Shown piece by piece: positions 1,213-14,329 of a stretch of 14,424 nucleotides of DNA (position 1 is its first letter; the number at the start of each line of letters is the position of its first letter). The DNA lies in contig DAOVET010000065.1 in the NCBI GenBank assembly GCA_030668825.1, forward strand, positions 1 to 14,424, read 5' to 3'. Source of the stretch: Candidatus Heimdallarchaeota archaeon. Lineage in GTDB: Archaea; Asgardarchaeota; Heimdallarchaeia; Heimdallarchaeales; Heimdallarchaeaceae. The notes beneath the pieces are model-generated. The model saw nothing but the letters and a program-made list of their open reading frames with translations. It did not search any database and was not told the DNA's origin. The position numbers and the translations under genes are program-made.

Positions 1213-1228
1213 AAAAAGAAAAAGAAAA
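1213..1228 (-). terminator. Oligo-T terminator of the ATPase-TOPRIM operon
   Basis: The minus strand reads TTTTCTTTTTCTTTTT directly after the stop codon. An equivalent tract lies at ~12708-12724. Confidence 0.6.
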
Positions 1229-1708
1229 TTACTGAATTTGAATCTCAAAATAGTATTTTTGGAACAATTCCTTTAAACACAGCAAATGATCTGAAGAAAG
1301 TAAGACATCTAATAGTTGTTTAAATTTGTCAATACGAATATTAACTCGTCCATGAAATTCATTTTCATCTCTAGAAAATCCAAAATCTCTTACATCTACT
1401 TTTTCTAATCGAGAAACTCTTAGAACCCAACCTTCAAGTTTTGGATCTAATTCAATTACATAATTATTGTTAGAAGTCTTGAAAACACTATATTTAAAAT
1501 ATTCACTAATTTCAACCTCTTCCATCTCTTTGTATTTTGGTGTAATATAATCTTTATCAACCATTCCAATAGAATTATTCATTCGGAATATCCAGTTCAA
1601 AACATTTCCTTTGCCATGTTTATGTTCCATGTCCTTTTTTGTAATATCAGGGAGCAATTTCTTTATTAGCTCCTCGTCAGAATAACATTCAAATAGAATC
1701 ATTTTCAT
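1229..1708 (-). CDS. Small TOPRIM-fold protein, putative nuclease partner of the ABC ATPase (OLD-TOPRIM/AriB-like)
   Basis: ILFECxSD (conserved Glu after the first beta-strand, ExxxD) and GMVDKD (DxD). It overlaps the ATPase stop by 20 nt, and the paralog at 12725-13204 keeps both motifs. Confidence 0.7.
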   Translation of the reverse strand: MKMILFECYSDEELIKKLLPDITKKDMEHKHGKGNVLNWIFRMNNSIGMVDKDYITPKYKEMEEVEISEYFKYSVFKTSNNNYVIELDPKLEGWVLRVSRLEKVDVRDFGFSRDENEFHGRVNIRIDKFKQLLDVLLSSDHLLCLKELFQKYYFEIQIQ

Positions 1709-2763: not shown

Positions 2764-3073
2764 TGTAGATAATCTAATGTAACCTCCCAACTTCTAGAAA
2801 GAATGTCATACCACCAGTAATGGGATCTTTGAACAAGAAAGGGTACAAGATAACTTGCATAATTGCTTTTTTTCCCAAACATTTCCGTTTTTCAAGATCG
2901 AATCATTCATGTTAATGTCCTCATAATATCTTGTAAGTTAACCTATTAATGCACCACAATTTTGAATCAATTACAAAGACATTTTTATCGGGGTTTAGAC
3001 CTTGTTAAACATTAATAGAAAGCAAAGAGAGAGCGTTAAAAAGCCTTTTATACTTCTTCTTGTGCGATAATAT

Positions 3074-3914: not shown

Positions 3915-4583
3915 CTATTTCTTTGTCGTATTTTTCTTGTCTCTTTTCTCTATTGCTTTTCTAGCTCCTTCAGGCAATTTTCCATAAAATGAATTGAGTT
4001 CTTTTTCTTGTGTAATTAGTACATTAACAATCATGTTGATTATTGAAAAAAGAGCAGTTGCCATGTCAATATCATCTGTAAGATCAATTTCGCCAGGATG
4101 TACAGCATTGTTGCCTATAATCCTCACAAAATCCAATCCTTTTTGAATCTGTTCAGGCAATCCTTTCTCTACCAAACTTGCTATGTCCTTATCGATGTAC
4201 TTGCCTTCTTCACCTAAATGTTTCATCAATTTTTGTATTGACAATCGTAATAGAGCAGCAGCTGCTCTAGGAGAATCAGAGACAATATTTCTAGCTTCAA
4301 GATAATCTTCTTTTACATCTTTAGGCATATTTTCAACAGGAAGAGGAGCTGAAGATGTTCTTGGAGATATAATTTTTCTAGAAAACCACAATGCAAATTT
4401 CTCACAATGAGAACAAATACTTACATCAATCCCTTCTAGTTCATCATAATATGTTCTATTAATACTAGTAGAACGAGTACGAGAACATGAAGCATTAAAC
4501 CATTCTTGATGTGAATAAACCCCACAATGGGGACAATGGAAGCTATCTGTGTAAAATTTTGGTGGAAAATACTTTTCGCTCAT
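3915..4583 (-). CDS. DUF4145 (HEPN-like) domain protein with N-terminal Zn-ribbon
   Basis: CPHC and CSHC; DYLEA...SPRAAAALLRLSIQ; RIIGNNAVHPGEI, typical of DUF4145. Confidence 0.85.
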   Translation of the reverse strand: MSEKYFPPKFYTDSFHCPHCGVYSHQEWFNASCSRTRSTSINRTYYDELEGIDVSICSHCEKFALWFSRKIISPRTSSAPLPVENMPKDVKEDYLEARNIVSDSPRAAAALLRLSIQKLMKHLGEEGKYIDKDIASLVEKGLPEQIQKGLDFVRIIGNNAVHPGEIDLTDDIDMATALFSIINMIVNVLITQEKELNSFYGKLPEGARKAIEKRDKKNTTKK

Positions 4584-7572: not shown

Positions 7573-7666
7573 TGGATAAAGCACACCTTAATTACAATTC
7601 TTCTGGAATACTTGAATGTTTTGCTAGATTTATCTATAAAAGTAAAAGTACTACCAGTGCCTCTTA

Positions 7667-8137
7667 CTAATTCTTAGATTGTTTTTTCTTTGAATTTTTG
7701 ATTTCTGTAGATTTCTGTAAATCTAGAAACACTCCTTTTAATCTCTGTGAAGCTCTATAGAGATTGCTTTCACCAAACTCTTGTTGAATAATAATATTGG
7801 GACTTTGGATTATGTTAATTGTAATTTGTAATTCTCTTCTATACATCATTAATTCGTCAATGATCTTATTATCAAAAAATATAATGTCTCCAGAGGATAT
7901 TAATCCTGTGATAACTTCGTAGAGAGGTAGAACACCTAAATTGTTTCTATAAGTTGTATGTAGAATCTCATCGTTTGTATCAAGCTCAAACAATATTGAT
8001 TTAATGTATTTTCTCTTCTTCTCACTAATTTCATTTCTATCCTTTACTTTCTGAAATAGTAAATCAATACCAAACCCTAAAAAAGCTCCAAAAATTAGAA
8101 AAACTAAATTAATGAGACTAGCAATATAGTCAGCCAT
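7667..8137 (-). CDS. Hypothetical protein with a single N-terminal TM helix
   Basis: LINLVFLIFGAFLGFGIDLL followed by a charged helical domain. AAGTTTATC box upstream. Confidence 0.75.
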   Translation of the reverse strand: MADYIASLINLVFLIFGAFLGFGIDLLFQKVKDRNEISEKKRKYIKSILFELDTNDEILHTTYRNNLGVLPLYEVITGLISSGDIIFFDNKIIDELMMYRRELQITINIIQSPNIIIQQEFGESNLYRASQRLKGVFLDLQKSTEIKNSKKKQSKN

Positions 8138-8209
8138 AGAAAAAAGTAATTATTAGAATTGATAAACTTTACTTCAACTCTGGTGCAATTACAAAAAGAC
8201 TCAAGTTTC

Positions 8210-8229
8210 GTTTGGTCTCAGAATAGTAA
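8210..8229 (+). repeat. Junction motif copy 1
   Basis: GTTTGGTCTCAGAATAGTAA. Confidence 0.75.
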
Positions 8230-8259
8230 AAAAGAAAGAGAAAATTACTTTTACGAAAA

Positions 8260-8535
8260 CTAATTGCTTTTTTCATGTTCTCTAATTGCTACAACTATTA
8301 ATTGTACAATAACATTATCAGGATACTTTTGTTCTAGTAATTCAGCTAATGCTTGACAGCCTGTACTATTAATGAATACTGAAAAAAGTTCATGATCATC
8401 TTTTAATTGAGTAGCCCAACTAATTAATCCAATAAAATAGATTTCATGTATTTCAGTTTTTCCAGTCAAATAGTCGCCTAATTCACGACCAAGTTTTTTA
8501 CATTGTTCTTCTGTTATTTTTTTGCTAGAGTTCAT
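8260..8535 (-). CDS. Small hypothetical protein
   Basis: Stand-alone ORF with a CTTTAAATA box ~26 nt upstream and a T-tract downstream. Confidence 0.7.
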   Translation of the reverse strand: MNSSKKITEEQCKKLGRELGDYLTGKTEIHEIYFIGLISWATQLKDDHELFSVFINSTGCQALAELLEQKYPDNVIVQLIVVAIREHEKSN

Positions 8536-8608
8536 TAATATCAGTACTATTGGTACATTTGAATATTTAAAGATGCCAAGTTATTCTCCTGTGTTACAAG
8601 GTTTTTCA

Positions 8609-8628
8609 GTTTGGTCTCAGGATGGTAA
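8609..8628 (+). repeat. Junction motif copy 2 (extended similarity 8602-8676 to ~9185-9264)
   Basis: GTTTGGTCTCAGGATGGTAA, followed by TTTTCTTTGGAAATTTTACTAATATAAAGG and an A-tract, as in copy 3. Confidence 0.8.
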
Positions 8629-8698
8629 TTTTCTTTGGAAATTTTACTAATATAAAGGAAAAAAAGAAAAAAATTATAGATCTCTCTTTAAAGTACTA

Positions 8699-9112
8699 TT
8701 ACCACTTTGTTACCATCTGATGAGTTCCATCTTTAAATCCGCCAAGCAGAATAACTAAGCAATCAATAGCCCAACCAATTCCACATATACCAAAAGTAAA
8801 TAAGTATAGTATTCCCGAACCCACTTTACCTACATAGAATCTATGGACCCCAATAATACCAAAGAGTAAACAAAGAATAAGTGCTACTAATCTACTCTTC
8901 TGTGATATACTAGGCTGAGTTCCAGGCACGGTTACTTGTACAACTTGACTAACGCTTTGTACTGGTGCAACTGTTATTGGTTGCGGAGTGATTGTTTGTT
9001 CTTGCTGAGTTTGTCCTTTCATTTGCGCACCACAATTTTGGCAAAACTTCGCTTCAGGATCTTGGGTAGAACCGCATTTTGGACAGAAAAATTTTTGATT
9101 CATATTTATCAC
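8699..9112 (-). CDS. Zinc-ribbon + TM2 domain membrane protein (ATG at 9103 is the likelier start)
   Basis: FCPKCG...FCQNCG double Zn-ribbon, Q/P/V linker, then KSRLVALILCLLFGIIGVHRFYVGKVGSGILYLFTFG (TM2 signature). Confidence 0.92.
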   Translation of the reverse strand: MINMNQKFFCPKCGSTQDPEAKFCQNCGAQMKGQTQQEQTITPQPITVAPVQSVSQVVQVTVPGTQPSISQKSRLVALILCLLFGIIGVHRFYVGKVGSGILYLFTFGICGIGWAIDCLVILLGGFKDGTHQMVTKW

Positions 9113-9132
9113 TTCTGAAAAACTCTTTTCAG

Positions 9133-9234
9133 TTTCATATTAATTTCTAGAACTGAGATTGAAGGGATTTTAAGCTTTGAAACAGTTTTCGGTTTTGGCT
9201 CAAAAAGGTAGTTTTCTCTAGAAATTTTACTAAT
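9133..9234. repeat. 102-bp direct repeat, left copy (promoter + junction motif copy 3 at 9192-9211)
   Basis: 90/102 identical to 11342-11443 without gaps (73 of the first 78). Motif GTTTTGGCTCAAAAAGGTAG. Confidence 0.92.
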
Positions 9235-9240
9235 ATTAAG

Positions 9241-9261
9241 GAAAAAAAGAAAGAAAAAAAA
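9241..9261 (-). terminator. Oligo-T terminator
   Basis: Long T-tract on the minus strand immediately after the stop codon of the 669-aa gene. Confidence 0.6.
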
Positions 9262-11271
9262 TTACAAACTAATTGCCCCATCTAAATCACATATAGCTAT
9301 AGTATGCTCATCACTAGTTATACTCCCTTTATCAATATAGTATTGTAGCCAAGCAGGATGTGTTCCAAAAGGAGTATCCCAAGTAGTATCAATAAAACAC
9401 CAAGTAAATCCTTCATCGTAGTAAGGGTCTATACTTCCAAATCGCCATAAACTACACGCAGGGTATACTAATCTAAAAGCGTCTGTGTCTTCAATATGAA
9501 CCAAAAGCGTCATATGATAAAAACCATAGTCAGCATCATGAAAACCAACTAAGGTTGTCTCAAATCCACAAGATTCTAAGTAAGCAGAAACTAACATTGC
9601 TTGGTCTTCACAATCTCCTAATGTTCTGAAAGCAGTCTCAACAGGGAACTTAACATAATCCAAACCAAATGACTCTTGTCCAACAGTTATATCAGTATCA
9701 TATTCATAATCAATTTCATCTATACACCATTGAACAATTTCATTAATCCAATATAATTCATTCCCTAACAACGCTGACCCCCAATACGGAAGCCAATCCC
9801 AGAAAGTCCAATAGAAAATATCCAAAGCCAGATACTCAGTTTGATTACCATACTTTAAACAATCTGCAAGAGCATTAGACACTTCTGAAAACCAATGCCC
9901 TTCTAAAAAGGTGTCTACATAACTTTGTGAATCATGTAAAACTATGTCCCTACAAAATCTTGTAAATTGATACCAATATGTAGAATCATCTGTCGCTAAA
10001 CTTACATAATAGTCTTCAAAGTAGTATCGTCTAACAGCCTCTGCAAAAATCATATATTGTGCAGGTAAAGTCATTTGTCTAATCCAAGTTGATAATTGAT
10101 TCCATTGTTGAGATAGAATATTATACTCTGCTTCTAATAACAGATAATCTGATTCAAGTTGAACATATAAAATACCTAGTTGGTTAAAAGCATCTGATAA
10201 TAAATTATAATCTATTTGTAAATTATCAAAATTAGATTGTAATGTAATCAAATTTTCTGTTAGTACATTGTATTCTGCTAACAAAGTATTGTATGTCGTT
10301 GAAAGTACATCAAATTCCGTAATTAACAGTTCGTGTTCAGATTGTAATATGCTATAATTTACTAATAATGTATTGTAGTCATTAAGCATTACATTGTAAC
10401 TTGTTTCCAAAGTAGAATAAGCTGATACCAAAGCATTGTAATCTTCTTGTAGGTCACTGTTTTCTATTACCAAAATATCATACTCTATAATTAATAAATT
10501 ATAATTTGCTAATATTGTAGTATAAAGAATATCTAAAGTTTCATATTCACCTAGTAGCATATTATAGCTCGTTATAAGTGCAGTATGTTCAGCTTGAAGT
10601 GTATTATAATCCAACTGTAATTCTTCATGAGCTAGTACTAATATATTATGATTTAACATTAAAGAATCATAGTCTATTTGTAAATCTCCAAGTTCAGTCT
10701 CTAAAACATTAAAAGCTATTAATAACGTATTATAGTCTGCAAATAAAGCGTCATAAGCTACTACAAGTGCATCATGCTCTGCTATTAAGAGATTATGATC
10801 ACCTTCTAATGTAGAATATTCTTCTATCAATAAATTATACTCAGCCATTACCGTATTGTAATCAGATAATAAAACATTATAAGCGATCACTAAAGTATCA
10901 TAATCTTCTTGTAACGCATTATTTTCCATGACTAATGTTTCATAGGTTTCTACTACAACACTATAATTTCCTAATAATGTAGAGTAGGTCTCATTTAATA
11001 TATTATAATCCAGTAGTAGTTTGGCATAGAGTTCATCCAAAGTAATATTTCCTTCAATTAATATGTCATACTTTTCTTGCAACTCGGTATAATTTCCTTC
11101 CAAATTATTGTAATCTCCTAAAAGATTATTATATTCTTCATTCAATTCTTCGAGGTCTAACAAAAGTGCACCATAGTCTTCACCAGTTAAATCTGTAATG
11201 AGATAACCAGTTAAACCACCGACGCAAAAAAATACAAGTATTAAGCTTCCTGTTAACATGTTTTTATTCAT
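9262..11271 (-). CDS. Membrane-anchored long coiled-coil protein with C-terminal transglutaminase-like cysteine protease domain
   Basis: N-terminal TM/signal (LILVFFCVGGLTGYLI) and ~350 aa of Y-x-x-L heptads. The C-terminal KFPVET...GDCEDQAML, HM and FIDTT give a Cys-His-Asp triad. GAGGT RBS. Confidence 0.85.
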   Translation of the reverse strand: MNKNMLTGSLILVFFCVGGLTGYLITDLTGEDYGALLLDLEELNEEYNNLLGDYNNLEGNYTELQEKYDILIEGNITLDELYAKLLLDYNILNETYSTLLGNYSVVVETYETLVMENNALQEDYDTLVIAYNVLLSDYNTVMAEYNLLIEEYSTLEGDHNLLIAEHDALVVAYDALFADYNTLLIAFNVLETELGDLQIDYDSLMLNHNILVLAHEELQLDYNTLQAEHTALITSYNMLLGEYETLDILYTTILANYNLLIIEYDILVIENSDLQEDYNALVSAYSTLETSYNVMLNDYNTLLVNYSILQSEHELLITEFDVLSTTYNTLLAEYNVLTENLITLQSNFDNLQIDYNLLSDAFNQLGILYVQLESDYLLLEAEYNILSQQWNQLSTWIRQMTLPAQYMIFAEAVRRYYFEDYYVSLATDDSTYWYQFTRFCRDIVLHDSQSYVDTFLEGHWFSEVSNALADCLKYGNQTEYLALDIFYWTFWDWLPYWGSALLGNELYWINEIVQWCIDEIDYEYDTDITVGQESFGLDYVKFPVETAFRTLGDCEDQAMLVSAYLESCGFETTLVGFHDADYGFYHMTLLVHIEDTDAFRLVYPACSLWRFGSIDPYYDEGFTWCFIDTTWDTPFGTHPAWLQYYIDKGSITSDEHTIAICDLDGAISL

Positions 11272-11341
11272 TTTTTTACCTCTGTTCCTGTTCCGTCACA
11301 AGCCTCGACTTGTGAGCTTTAGAAATTAATACTCTCTTCCT

Positions 11342-11443
11342 TTTCATATTAATCTCTAGAACTGAGATTTAGGGGTTTTTAAACTTTGAAACAGTTTTCG
11401 GTTTTGGCTCAAAAAGGTAATTTTAAAGAAAGATTTTACTAAT
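11342..11443. repeat. 102-bp direct repeat, right copy (promoter + junction motif copy 4 at 11401-11420)
   Basis: Matches 9133-9234. Motif GTTTTGGCTCAAAAAGGTAA. Minus-strand TATA AAAGTTTAAAAA. Confidence 0.92.
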
Positions 11444-11500
11444 TAATACTATCTTGCCGAAACTTCTTATAGCTCTTGGGGGTAAGAAACAAAGATTAAA

Positions 11501-11737
11501 ATGGTAGATTGTTTATTAGGATGGTGTTTCATTTCACAAGAAGAACTAATACTTTATATTGTTCTTGCTGCTGTTGCTGGTCTCATAATTGGAGCACTGT
11601 GTGGTGCTGCTTTTAAATCTGGGAAAAAGGAAGTAGTTTATGTCCAACCTCCTCCTCAATACCCACCACCACAACAGCCACAACATAGACAACCTCCCCC
11701 TCAGCGCCCTCCTCAAGATCAACAAAAACAACAATGA
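11501..11737 (+). CDS. Small single-TM protein with Pro/Gln-rich tail
   Basis: LILYIVLAAVAGLIIGALCGAAF, then KSGKK and VVYVQPPPQYPPPQQPQ.... Confidence 0.8.
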   Translation: MVDCLLGWCFISQEELILYIVLAAVAGLIIGALCGAAFKSGKKEVVYVQPPPQYPPPQQPQHRQPPPQRPPQDQQKQQ

Positions 11738-11885
11738 AATAATCTTACAGAAAGTTTTCTTATGGAGTATCGGCAATAAAATAAATCGTTATCAGTTTCT
11801 CCTGGATAGTAAATATTTTCATCAGCTGATAATTTTCTTTCATGAAAGTATTTAATCACCAATATTACAAAATGACTTGGACCAA

Positions 11886-12195
11886 GATTTGAACCAGGGT
11901 TGAAAATCATACCAGGTATTGGTAATAGGGATTCTCATTATCTTGCTAAAAAGTGGCGTTTGTATGTCACATATAACATGCGAAAAAATGATGTCTATAT
12001 GTCAAATAGAAAAAACAAGTTTCTTTAGTTACTCATGGCCATAAAGAACTTTCCATTTTCCTTCCCTTTTTCTTATTAGGGAGGGAGGAGAAGTAGCTAT
12101 AAAATGAAAGCTACTTCCCAAGAATAGTATTAGAACGAGATTAATAAAGGTTATCTAATAAAAAATCAGGTTGGAGGAGAACCCAGGTTCAAATC
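11886..12195. repeat. 16-bp inverted repeat pair (11886-11901 and 12180-12195) resembling a tRNA T-arm
   Basis: AACCCTGGTTCAAATC (minus) vs AACCCAGGTTCAAATC (plus), 15/16. Confidence 0.65.
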
Positions 12196-12221
12196 CGTAT
12201 TGAGAAAATCTTATCATTTAC

Positions 12222-12569
12222 TTATTTTATTTCTAAGAATGTGATTCTTATGGTTTCTACGCTCTTCTCCGAATGATTTACTAGTGTATAAAACATTTCT
12301 TTATCAAATATCACAAAGTCCCCTTCCTTTAACAACTCCTTCTCTTTTTCTCTTTTGTCAACTTTCTCAACTTCTACTTCTCCTTCCATTATAAATACGA
12401 CATCCTTTACTCCCCTTTGAGAAAATCTGAATAGTGGATCTCTTGGAAGTAAGATGATTTTATTGATCTCAAAGGGAGATATCCTTGGGAAAAGACTCTT
12501 ACATCTCTCCATACACTCAGAGTATTTACCCTTGATAGATGTATAATTGCTCCTTCTTATTATTTGCAT
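12222..12569 (-). CDS. Cupin-domain protein
   Basis: DVVFIMEGEVEV...LLKEGDFVIFD...YTLVNHS fits the cupin barrel pattern. The metal-binding histidines are absent. Confidence 0.8.
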   Translation of the reverse strand: MQIIRRSNYTSIKGKYSECMERCKSLFPRISPFEINKIILLPRDPLFRFSQRGVKDVVFIMEGEVEVEKVDKREKEKELLKEGDFVIFDKEMFYTLVNHSEKSVETIRITFLEIK

Positions 12570-12689
12570 GCTAATAATCTCTTCTGATATTTATGTTATT
12601 TTCCATGAAATGTATTAAAGTGTTAGCGTTACTATATATGCCCCCTATGTCTTCTCATAAGCTTTAGTGTTCTATGATTAAACAAAAAA

Positions 12690-12709
12690 GTTTAATCTCA
12701 AAAAGGTAA
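12690..12709 (+). repeat. Junction motif copy 5, overlapping the palindrome GATTAAAC-N6-GTTTAATC (12676-12697)
   Basis: GTTTAATCTCAAAAAGGTAA, abutting the left edge of the second ATPase-TOPRIM copy. Confidence 0.7.
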
Positions 12710-12724
12710 AAAAGAAAAAGAAAG

Positions 12725-13204
12725 TTACTTAACTTGAATCTCAAAATAGTATTTCTGGAACAATTCCTTTAAACACAGCAAATGCTTTGAAGAAAGTAAG
12801 ACATCTAATAGTTGTTTAAATTTGTCAATACGAATCATAGTTTTTCTATGAAATTCATTTTCATCTCTAGAAAATCCAAATTCTTTAATATCTACATTTT
12901 CTAAACGAGAAACTCTCAGAATCCAACCTTCAAGTTTTGGATCTAATTCAATTACATAATTATTGTTTGAAGTCTTGAAAACACTATATTTGAAATATTC
13001 ATTAACTTCAACCTCTTCCATCTCTCTGTATCTAGGTCTAATATAATCTTTATCAACCATTCCAATAGAATTGTTCATTTGGAATATCCATTTCAAAATA
13101 TTTCCTTTACCATATTTATGTTCCATTTCCTTTTTTGTAATATCAGGGAGCAATTTCTTTATTAATTCCCCATCAGAATCACATTCAAATAGAATCATTT
13201 TCAT
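12725..13204 (-). CDS. Small TOPRIM-fold protein, paralog of 1229-1708
   Basis: ILFECDSD and GMVDKD. 24 of 159 residues differ from copy 1 by manual count. Confidence 0.7.
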   Translation of the reverse strand: MKMILFECDSDGELIKKLLPDITKKEMEHKYGKGNILKWIFQMNNSIGMVDKDYIRPRYREMEEVEVNEYFKYSVFKTSNNNYVIELDPKLEGWILRVSRLENVDIKEFGFSRDENEFHRKTMIRIDKFKQLLDVLLSSKHLLCLKELFQKYYFEIQVK

Positions 13205-14219
13205 TCCCTAGATATTTATCAATGTTGAAGAATATATTATCCCAATCTAAAACTTCTTCCATCTGCTTTTCTGTCATACAATGAACTTTAGTTTCATAAT
13301 CTTCGTAGTAGGTGAGAAAAACACGTAAATCTTGCGGTGGAGTCTTTTCTACAAGTGATGTTAGCAAATAAGGATTATGAGTAGAAATGAAATATTGGTT
13401 GCTGAACTTATCAATCGCAATAATTTCTGCAATATATTTAGTATAGAAAGGAAATAGATGCGTTTCAGGTTCTTCAAAAACAAGGATTGATTCATTGTTT
13501 GATAAAATGGCGGGTATAAGAATGAATAATCTTTGAATTGTTTCTGCAGTGAGATTCAATGAAAAACCAACGAATAAATCTGTATCAAGTTTTACAATTT
13601 CAATTTTTTTATCAGCAGGACGTACATACGTTTTAAAACCAAAGGGATGTAAAATATCAGAAAGAGCAGTTCCAATTTTTTTATTCGCTTGCAATACATT
13701 TACTAAATTTGTTCCTAGTGGGGGAAGTAAGTATTCTGTTTCATGTGCTTTGAATTCAAAAAGCTGTTTGTACCTATAAAATTTAATCACAGGATACAAA
13801 TCATCAAATCCCTTCATCGTACCAATAAACTCTCTATAATGCCCTAGATCAGTAAAGGATATTCTTATTGCTTTTTCTTTTCTTTTATTAATCTGATCAA
13901 TGTGTTCTAATCTGAGATGATATTCATCCTGCTCAGAGGAGATAAGAATTTGTGAATTATCGACTGTAATGGTTGCAGGGTTATTTGTATTGTTATCATA
14001 AAAGAAATTCATGAAATATTCATATCGCACAATATCCTTGCTTATATGTTGTTTGTCAGTTGTATAACGATTAAATCTAATTGAAGAAAACAGTCCTAGA
14101 GCTTCTAAAATATTGGATTTTCCTGTATTAGGTTTACCAATAAATATATTTATTCTTGAACAATCCAAATCAACATTTTTGATTGATTTAAAATTTTTGA
14201 TAGAAATATGTTTTATCAT
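13185..14219 (-). CDS. ABC-type ATPase (AAA_15/AAA_21), paralog of 1689-2723
   Basis: GKPNTGKS, FEEPETHL, ISTHNP. 64 of 344 residues differ from copy 1 by manual count. Confidence 0.9.
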   Translation of the reverse strand: MIKHISIKNFKSIKNVDLDCSRINIFIGKPNTGKSNILEALGLFSSIRFNRYTTDKQHISKDIVRYEYFMNFFYDNNTNNPATITVDNSQILISSEQDEYHLRLEHIDQINKRKEKAIRISFTDLGHYREFIGTMKGFDDLYPVIKFYRYKQLFEFKAHETEYLLPPLGTNLVNVLQANKKIGTALSDILHPFGFKTYVRPADKKIEIVKLDTDLFVGFSLNLTAETIQRLFILIPAILSNNESILVFEEPETHLFPFYTKYIAEIIAIDKFSNQYFISTHNPYLLTSLVEKTPPQDLRVFLTYYEDYETKVHCMTEKQMEEVLDWDNIFFNIDKYLGNENDSI

Positions 14220-14329
14220 TTTCTGTACTTAATGTTAAATTGCAAGTTTAAAATTGTTTTGTAGGTAATTTGGTGTAACACTTTACCAGGAGAATCTTCT
14301 TGAGGAGTATTTTCTAATTCAGTTGTCAT
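14216..14329 (-). pseudogene. 37-aa ORF, probably the 5' stub of an interrupted gene
   Basis: MTTELENTPQEDSPGKVLHQITYKTILNLQFNIKYRK*. AAGGTG RBS and ATGA overlap with the upstream gene. From codon ~17 it runs through the duplicated promoter DNA. Confidence 0.45.

Follow-up and report, generated by a model that had tools for sequence, protein, structure and literature searches.

Directly repeated intergenic modules in an accessory-gene island of a Candidatus Heimdallarchaeota archaeon

Genomic context and gene content

The DNA described here (the window) is the entire 14,424-base contig C70 (DAOVET010000065.1) of a Candidatus Heimdallarchaeota assembly, GCA_030668825.1 (G000), which comprises 2,757,437 bases in 138 contigs, has 33% G+C, is 90.6% complete and contains TBP and a small-subunit (SSU) fragment recognised by the archaeal model. 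An intergenic core element of about 50 nucleotides (nt) is repeated five times in one orientation along this contig, each copy upstream of a different gene. Outside this array of junctions the contig is a defence island, encoding a PD-T7-4 homologue, two AbiL/NsnB/AriA-like ATPase pairs and an HNH endonuclease.

The repeat was first noticed as a 20-mer that reads GTTTNNNCTCARRAWRGTAR on the plus strand and begins at 8210, 8609, 9192, 11401 and 12690. A pattern search finds all five copies in the same orientation with no mismatches, at the spacings of 399, 583, 2209 and 1289 base pairs (bp) given by the first-pass annotation, where 0.15 matches are expected by chance (standard deviation 0.40) and five or more occur in none of 200 dinucleotide shuffles of the window. 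In the whole genome the strict 20-mer pattern has five matches, all on this contig. That annotation described the 20-mer as a junction motif, which is real but is only the middle of the longer element; it saw the motif in antisense because the open reading frames (ORFs) downstream of the copies run on the minus strand, on which the 20-mer reads TTACCTTTTTGAGCCAAAAC.

Each of the first three intervals between copies contains, as had been proposed, one gene unrelated to the others: the minus-strand ORFs at 8260-8535, 8699-9112 and 9262-11271 differ in their Pfam content (none, TM2 plus zinc ribbon, and transglutaminase-like, respectively). The fourth interval (11401 to 12690) holds several things rather than a single gene. 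The window cargo consists of a membrane protein of 156 amino acids (aa), a 91-aa protein, a TM2/zinc-ribbon protein, a 669-aa coiled-coil/transglutaminase-like protein and a small cupin, the first four of which are arranged as follows:

7667-11271, minus strand: four successive single-gene units, encoding proteins of 156 aa, 91 aa, 137 aa (TM2) and 669 aa (coiled-coil/transglutaminase-like), from ORFs and Pfam

The protein encoded at 9262-11271 (minus strand, 669 aa) has an N-terminal membrane helix, a YN-rich stretch of heptad-like repeats some 400 residues long and, at its C-terminus, a transglutaminase-like domain; the repeats give many weak HALZ matches, the family is present in multiple copies in the islands of relatives, and several internal segments of the gene (9303-10006) are replaced in metagenome contigs.

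Anatomy of the core element

The longer core was defined by aligning the five window copies with ten copies from relatives (n = 15). On the gene (minus) strand it reads RGTAAWWTTYC-N9-10-TTACCWTTTTGAGMCMAAACCGAAA and is composed of box 1 (RGTAAWWTTYC), a pyrimidine- or purine-rich spacer of 9-10 nt, box 2 (TTACCWTTTT) and an extension (GAGMCMAAACCGAAA). This extended core is conserved across the 15 aligned copies, the TTAC being invariant; its 50 nt include TTAC, GAG and AAACCGAAA, and the GTAA of box 1 and TTAC of box 2 form an inverted repeat, GTAA-N15-TTAC, of 4-6 bp. Variant A (copies 2, 3 and partly 4) reads TTAGTAAAATTTC-N-GAAAATTACC and, where units stand in tandem, follows a TTTATAT-type box and a long T-tract, and variant B (copies 1 and 5) reads AGTAAYTTTCTYTTTCTTTTTTAC, copy 1 being written AGTAATTTTC-N-TTACTATTCTGAGACCAAAC. 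A shortened core without the extension, in which TTACCTTTT is joined straight to a promoter module named R1, is found in the relatives' contigs G017:C340 and G005:C108. Copies were scored with a sequence-only covariance model built on a 56-nt core:

8203-8253, minus strand: core copy 1, variant B; 47.7 bits, E 2e-14; upstream of ORF 7667-8137
8601-8653, minus strand: core copy 2, variant A; 47.5 bits; upstream of ORF 8260-8535
9184-9236, minus strand: core copy 3, variant A; 50.1 bits; upstream of the TM2/zinc-ribbon ORF 8699-9112
11393-11444, minus strand: core copy 4; 48.2 bits; upstream of the 669-aa ORF 9262-11271
12689-12732, minus strand: core copy 5, variant B, the weakest; 35.6 bits; upstream of the cupin ORF 12222-12569

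At the loci orthologous to copy 5 (in G011, G013, G017 and G022), the T-rich part and TTTTGAGATTAA are kept and the TTACC is not. Degenerate copies proposed by eye at approximately 2960-3030 and at 7625-7671 (minus strand) have no covariance-model support and are not counted. Several other identities were considered and set aside. RNAalifold predicts no pairs on the 15 copies, contrary to a structured RNA. A repeat of the clustered regularly interspaced short palindromic repeat (CRISPR) type is not indicated, as the copies are 399-2209 nt apart and a spacing scan found no array in G000, a search that did not extend to cas genes. A miniature inverted-repeat transposable element or other derivative of an insertion sequence is also not indicated, given the single orientation of the five window copies, the lack of terminal inverted repeats beyond GTAA/TTAC, the at least 19 of 24 copies in the class that point towards a same-strand ORF and the lack of a Y1 transposase match in G000.

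Distribution among relatives

At E<=1e-4 the covariance model gives 24 strong matches in 11 of the 83 genomes of the class, with 1-6 copies per genome. All 11 belong to one family (G000, nine of the 24 others of its genus and one of the two of a second genus), and none of the 52 genomes of the other families of the class has a match at this threshold. With a looser cut-off of E<=0.01, a match is present in 18 of the 47 genomes of the order, and many weak partial core matches exist. The copies cluster: G017:C340 has three, and G029:C320, G029:C205, G029:C248 and G005:C70 have two each. The contigs with the element are in many cases only 2-6 kilobases (kb) long and several begin or end in a module, as would suit a repeat at which assemblies break. 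The strict core pattern has no match in viral contigs, none in metagenome contigs and six in the contigs of a collection of species-representative genomes, five of these in Candidatus Heimdallarchaeota and one a chance match in a coding region of a bacterial metagenome-assembled genome. Exact 20-mers in G025:C14 and G029:C2 were set aside because their flanks are unrelated and the sequence around them looks coding.

The strong matches are intergenic with respect to ORFs of at least 45 aa in all 24 cases but one, which overlaps a doubtful 53-aa ORF, and 19 of the 24 have a same-strand ORF of at least 39 aa within 250 nt downstream. At least 15 different genes have the core in front of them; among the relatives' downstream proteins, nine of the ten tested have no Pfam match. 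The genes concerned are accessory, so that the core does not stand mainly at a fixed distance from the promoters of core genes, as a common transcription-factor site might.

Several of these loci have features of their own. At locus L099 of a nearly closed relative (G001:C15:374000-386000), two copies of a class-V aminotransferase gene enclose the core and a homologue, of 429 aa, of the 669-aa gene. A tRNA-Gly(CCC), a possible integration hotspot, adjoins them, and the same aminotransferase is found at the border of the G029:C12 island. At L116 (G011:C55, 930-7093) and L028 (G002:C2, 83-4762), the core precedes a shared gene pair encoding a tetratricopeptide repeat (TPR) protein of about 700 aa and a 670-aa protein.

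Position relative to promoters and modules R1 and R2

Measured to the start codon of the gene that follows, the first base of the 20-mer is 92 nt upstream for ORF 7667-8137 (copy 1), 93 nt for 8260-8535 (copy 2), 108 nt for 8699-9112 (copy 3), 149 nt for 9262-11271 (copy 4) and 140 nt for 12222-12569 (copy 5). Across 999-1006 confident gene starts of the genome, the TATA consensus TTTAAATA/TTTATAT is located at -44 to -24 from the ATG, and ribosome-binding sites are of the AGGTGA type at about -15. A TATA-like box is present at the genome-typical distance before each of the five window genes, with the core 33-66 nt further upstream. In variant A a TATA precedes TTACC by about 33 nt; copy 2, for example, has a TATA-like TTTATAT there and a second TATA, CTTTAAATA, at position -36 relative to the ATG. 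Variant B has none at that distance, and the shortened form leaves only about 20 nt between TTACC and the proximal TATA.

In tandem contexts the core is directly downstream of T-tracts that should terminate the preceding unit. The motif itself contains no stem-loop. At least five of the 24 strong matches stand at divergent junctions; the neighbour of copy 4 on its other side, for example, is the plus-strand ORF 11501-11737. The element is therefore not simply the terminator of the preceding gene, in agreement with the first-pass annotation. Downstream of the cores are either module R2 (copies 3 and 4) or unique sequences, and R1 occurs in the window only at 11849-11872:

9119-9183, minus strand: promoter module R2, with TATA-like AATTAATATG; direct repeat, 86%; common to copies 3 and 4 and to G005:C70
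11328-11392, minus strand: second copy of promoter module R2, direct repeat; metagenome contigs break at 11378 and 11387
11849-11872, minus strand: promoter module R1, TTTTGTAATATTGGTGATTAAATA; no core in front; followed by a truncated small ORF, MKIFTIQEKL...

Module R2 is 85-88% identical to L031 1411-1471, where it precedes an unrelated 422-aa ORF. R1 follows the core in G002:C2, G029:C320 and G017:C246, and it follows the shortened core in G017:C340 and G005:C108. Three unrelated genes stand behind R2 and several behind R1. Apart from stray R1 and box 2 matches on C59, C22 and C122, which are unrelated sequence, C70 is essentially the only contig of the genome with box 2, the extension, R1 or R2, contrary to a general terminator or promoter motif of the genome.

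Behind R1 in several genomes is a family of acidic proteins of 39-51 aa that begin with MKLFT(I/V)QEK and have no Pfam match. Its members are encoded at 11793-11822 (minus strand) in the window, where the copy is truncated to 20-27 aa, and at L028 207-362, L025 (approximately 39 aa) and L095 2545-2688.

Evidence for exchange at the element

The copies in the window share different flanks, as the first-pass annotation described, and these flanks are recovered as direct repeats. Copies 2 and 3 are 85% identical over 8603-8673 and 9186-9256, where the flank common to both is the left one on the gene strand; copies 3 and 4 are 86% identical over 9119-9234 and 11328-11443 and have the right flank in common; copies 1 and 5 are 83% identical over 8210-8250 and 12690-12730 and share the T-rich left part. 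When the left 45 nt and the right 70 nt of 18 copies are considered separately, their nearest relatives are discordant in 14. Both halves reach at least 0.80 in three of the discordant copies (copy 3, the short form of G017:C340 and G002:C2); for copy 3, the left half is closest to copy 2 (0.91) and the right half to copy 4 (0.92). Concordant halves are found in four of the 18, two of which are an orthologous pair.

Gene order across the element is not invariant, as the neighbours differ among relatives. Behind the 669-aa gene is the TM2 gene in the window and a 76-aa gene in G017:C340, and homology between the two sequences ends at 9203, directly after TTACCTTTT. The cupin unit (12183-12741) recurs at 90% identity in G011:C32, at 93% in G017:C246 and G022:C303, where it lies at contig ends, and at 80% in G013:C153; its upstream neighbour differs from that in the window and among all four genomes. 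A further boundary at the element is provided by a duplication within the contig:

1213-1237, minus strand: half element, box 1 and T-run only; 10.5 bits, E 0.01, model positions 3-27
12709-14280, minus strand: AbiL/NsnB/AriA-like ATPase (344 aa) and overlapping 159-aa partner without known family (PADLOC)

The gene pair at 12709-14280 is paralogous to that at 1213-2784, with 84-92% identity in direct orientation, the two copies lying near the two contig ends about 10 kb apart. The half element is at the 3' end of the first pair, and the 1.56-kb duplication retains box 1 and the T-run and ends exactly before the TTACC of copy 5. An artefact of a circular contig was ruled out, as the end copies are only 84-92% identical and the homology ends some 60 nt before the ATG.

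In contigs from four further metagenomes of sediment or seep origin (at least 88% likeness), the modules are joined in other combinations, with joints or loose ends at 8604, 8655, 8667, 8669, 11378, 11387, 11412, 11847/8, 11868, 11869 and 11876; stretches of the window that had no cover in runs X5, X6, X7 and X9 were left out of account. About nine of 12 joint endpoints (with at least 28 letters on the shorter side) fall inside modules that cover a few per cent of the window, and the window copy of R1 is the endpoint of four joints. One joint, 11868 to 11412 (run X6), looks circular, and a shortened core-R1 junction elsewhere in the population explains it equally well. Taken together, the breakpoints are spread over approximately 100 nt, located before TTACC, after TTACCTTTT, after CGAAA, at the border of core and R2, and in the T-tract.

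Sequence conservation is higher in the element than in the genes beside it. Identity to G029:C320, from another genus, is 97-100% in the core (8174-8253), 55-75% in the coding sequence (CDS) for the 156-aa protein and 85-95% in the 3' part of the CDS for the 91-aa protein, and a locus of core genes is 70-82% identical to five relatives' genomes. Whole units are 90-93% identical between species whose core genes are approximately 75% identical. For the element and for some of the units this therefore points either to strong constraint or to recent exchange between species.

Recombinases and integron-type sites

The first-pass annotation noted that the motif lacks the boxes and hairpin of integron attC sites, and scans and folds bear this out. 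Scanned crudely on both strands for R'' (RYYYAAC) and R' (GTTRRRY) boxes, the window as a whole yields no candidates (mean 0.04 in shuffles), and the motif forms GTTTGGT, GTTTTGG and GTTTAAT all violate GTTRRRY at position 4. Ten single-strand DNA folds, of the five junctions on both strands, have energies of -6.5 to -10.2 kcal/mol and z-scores of -1.03 to +0.68 against 200 shuffles each, and reveal no single-strand hairpin. Cassettes of integrons and of clusters of attC sites lacking integron-integrases (CALIN) are mostly promoterless single ORFs with their site behind them, and here each of the five window ORFs has a predicted promoter with a TATA-like box and is preceded by the element. With neither boxes nor hairpin, and with no match to the tyrosine recombinase profile PF00589 in G000, an attC or CALIN identity was rejected.

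The proposal that the sites are served by a recombinase encoded elsewhere gained no support, as no recombinase family co-occurring with the element was found. The 90.6% complete G000 has no match to PF00589, and none to the Y1 transposase profile PF01797. Tyrosine recombinases at large (PF00589) are present in 13 of the 25 genomes of the genus. Serine recombinase (resolvase-domain) genes are present in 29 of the family's 31 genomes, both with and without the element, and on element-bearing contigs none is closer to a copy than 50 kb; G000 has three, on C90, C80 and C29. The element-bearing stretches examined encode no recombinase except for one tyrosine recombinase approximately 1 kb downstream of the G011:C55 copy. 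In G011 this 314-aa protein is encoded by a gene inserted between the core and the TPR/670-aa gene pair.

Interpretation of the element

The element may be a portable regulatory junction module, the repeated copies of which would let promoter-bearing gene units be shuffled by homology in the manner of the promoter-early stem-loop (PeSL) cassettes of phages, a reading to which our analysis gives about even odds (roughly 0.5). The data show directly that the element is repeated, restricted to a variable island of defence and surface-protein genes, uniform in orientation and more conserved than the genes beside it, and that its flanks are mosaic and its neighbours variable; we infer both the regulatory role of the core and the mechanism of recombination. 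The core would most likely be a protein-binding site, with variant A possibly providing a second, upstream promoter in addition. Because it is repeated in direct orientation and shared between species, the module would provide homology for the exchange of units, amounting to a predicted 50-120 bp between one unit and another, and whole promoter-gene-terminator units could be duplicated, deleted, replaced or exchanged at it by homologous or microhomology-mediated recombination, with no dedicated site-specific enzyme. This reading is preferred because it explains the same facts with fewer assumptions.

A number of observations weigh against it. The core is not like a TATA box or TFB recognition element (BRE), and a TATA is at the right distance from TTACC only in variant A. 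An operator or upstream activating site would hold a fixed position relative to the core promoters of a regulon; the element is always upstream of and co-oriented with its gene, but its distance to the proximal TATA is variable, at 33-66 nt (in the shortened form TTACC is only some 20 nt away), which is odd for an activator site. No convincing ORF follows five of the 24 strong matches (G017:C340 at 505, G008:C95, G022:C193, G029:C248 at 2597 and G010:C63). The near-identity between genera could result from recent transfer rather than constraint. Assembly alone predicts contig branch points at repeats, so the metagenome joints indicate that alternative combinations exist and not how they arose. 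In addition, three junctions are no more than 10 nt from box 2 (the boundary of the 1213/12709 duplication, the TTACCTTTT|GTA joint of the shortened form and the break at 9203), as a site-specific crossover would predict.

That crossover is the basis of an alternative in which the core is the site of a new, non-attC cassette system and a recombinase encoded elsewhere crosses near the TTAC between boxes 1 and 2, the moved unit being [box 2 - promoter - gene - T-tract - box 1]. The proposal derives from the first-pass annotation, which interpreted the motif as the recombination site of a cassette-capture system. The part that holds is that the element marks the junctions of reassorting gene units, given the 14 of 18 copies with discordant halves, the variable neighbours and the metagenome joins; a dedicated recombinase is unsupported, the breakpoints are spread over some 100 nt, and each unit has its own TATA. 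The AbiL-like duplication that stops exactly before TTACC with box 1 kept, the shortened form joined right after TTACCTTTT in two genomes and one metagenome run, and the reassortment of halves are as such a system would leave them, and so are intervals of a single gene or single operon, the mostly ORFan cargo, the patchy distribution and units that are 90-93% identical where the core genes of the species are at about 75%. The GTAA-N15-TTAC inverted repeat formed by boxes 1 and 2 and the tyrosine recombinase downstream of the G011:C55 copy also speak for it. Integrons have also been reported to be enriched in Asgard archaea (PMC9668308).

Yet neither the window nor the other element-bearing stretches fetched carry a recombinase beyond that one, G000 has no PF00589 or PF01797 match, and resolvase-domain genes occur in genomes with and without the element. 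At only 4-6 bp on either side of a 15-nt spacer, the inverted repeat does not resemble known recombinase core sites, and the core has no further architecture of the recombinase type. Conservative recombination is not expected to leave the half site at 1213-1237, other breakpoints fall outside the core, a single inherited deletion, between the CTTTTTG repeats on either side of the extension, may account for all three sightings of the shortened form, and the TTACC of copy 5 is lost in its orthologues. The cassette-system alternative is thus unlikely. Its most specific form, a double-stranded recombination site of a lineage-specific system unrelated to integrons, at which a trans-encoded recombinase would cross next to TTAC and move defence, surface and ORFan genes with their promoters, both inside a species and from one species to another, is if anything more doubtful.

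The element could instead be a promoter that also supplies the beginning of a 5' leader or short RNA common to the island transcripts, a possibility we also hold to be unlikely, in which box 1 (GTAAAATTT) or the variant-A TATA directs initiation at TTAC or GAG and transcripts would begin GAGMCMAAACCGAAA. The centre of an archaeal TATA box lies approximately 26 nt before the transcription start, and this spacing fits both the distance from box 1 to GAG and that between TTTATAT and TTAC in variant A. Both candidate start sites have a T followed by a purine, the orientation is always towards the next gene, and several copies precede only very small ORFs or none. Nevertheless, box 1 is unlike the genome TATA consensus, variant B has no TATA at the needed distance, a proximal TATA already stands before every gene, and there is neither conserved RNA structure nor an Rfam match. 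Still less probable is that the copies are functionless, decaying relics of intergenic sequence copied with neighbouring genes by local duplication: the 1.56-kb duplication on the contig, the drift of copy 5 and its orthologues and the many weak partial matches would suit this origin, but the flanking genes are mutually unrelated, the core is 97-100% identical across genera beside CDS that are 55-75% identical, and it recurs before unrelated genes in ten other genomes.

Comparison with known systems

In trypanosomes, 70-bp repeats upstream of the variant surface glycoprotein (VSG) genes set the 5' limit of recombination, with gene conversion taking place within one gene family. The element is similar in being a conserved repeat upstream of a movable unit, whereas the genes here are mutually unrelated and archaeal.

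A close parallel to the favoured regulatory module is found in the PeSL cassettes of T4-type phages, for which modular shuffling by motif homology is described. A short conserved composite intergenic motif in one orientation lies there between small, mostly ORFan genes of a hyperplastic region, and the indels and replacements between relatives end in the motif, which gives the homology (PMC2839356, PMC4122927). An active promoter and a terminator form part of the phage motif, and neighbouring copies recombine to give mini-circles. Here too the motif lies between ORFan or non-essential genes of a variable region, and indels and replacements among relatives end in it. Unlike the phage cassettes, this is an island of an archaeal genome, and its core is not a recognisable promoter and has no stem-loop, with T-tracts as putative terminators.

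Integron attC and CALIN arrays are alike in having a same-orientation array of single genes of mostly unknown function, junction sites and, in CALINs, no adjacent integrase (PMC9668308). They differ in that primary sequence rather than structure is conserved here, with no R''/R' boxes and no hairpin, and in that the site is upstream of a promoter-bearing gene where attC is downstream of a promoterless one. Promoter reuse and putative mobile promoters in prokaryotes have been described (PMC3575422), and resemble the present case in that highly similar upstream sequences precede unrelated genes (three for R2, several for R1 and at least 15 for the core). In contrast to mobile promoters, the core is upstream of, and separable from, the TATA-bearing modules, and is found in one island type of one archaeal family. 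These comparisons suggest that what is new is shuffling at repeated intergenic modules in an island of an archaeal chromosome, such modular shuffling being already known.

Among known prokaryotes, the Heimdall group of archaea is the closest to eukaryotes, and the movement of accessory genes in it is poorly known. The element offers a concrete, searchable marker for exchange junctions of promoter-bearing units among species with core genes about 75% identical, as well as a handle on variable islands in fragmented Asgard assemblies, whose short contigs it explains. If the element is PeSL-like, modular shuffling at regulatory cassettes takes place in archaeal chromosomes as well as in phages; a true recombination site would represent a second cassette system, independent of integrons. 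No report of the element or of cassette-like intergenic repeats in Asgard archaea was found in the literature covered, including the portions of PMC8813620 and PMC11529989 consulted, a scope that excludes supplementary tables.

Other features of the window

The gene at 3915-4583 (minus strand) encodes a 222-aa DUF4145 protein with a full-length PADLOC match to PD-T7-4 (E 5e-89), a close homologue of a bacterial anti-phage candidate, here in a Heimdall-group archaeon. Scans of the window for tRNAs and against Rfam gave no matches. Two inverted T-arm-like fragments of the GGTTCAAATC type at 11882-11899 (minus strand) and 12182-12196 (plus strand) bound about 280 nt of non-coding DNA, which separates the cupin gene from module R1; a tRNA origin of the fragments was rejected, as ARAGORN finds none and there is no significant match elsewhere in the genome. 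The predicted 5' leader of the 669-aa gene contains a perfect 6-bp stem, CACAAG/CTTGTG, with a 6-nt loop at 11297-11314 (minus strand), approximately 25 nt before the ribosome-binding site.

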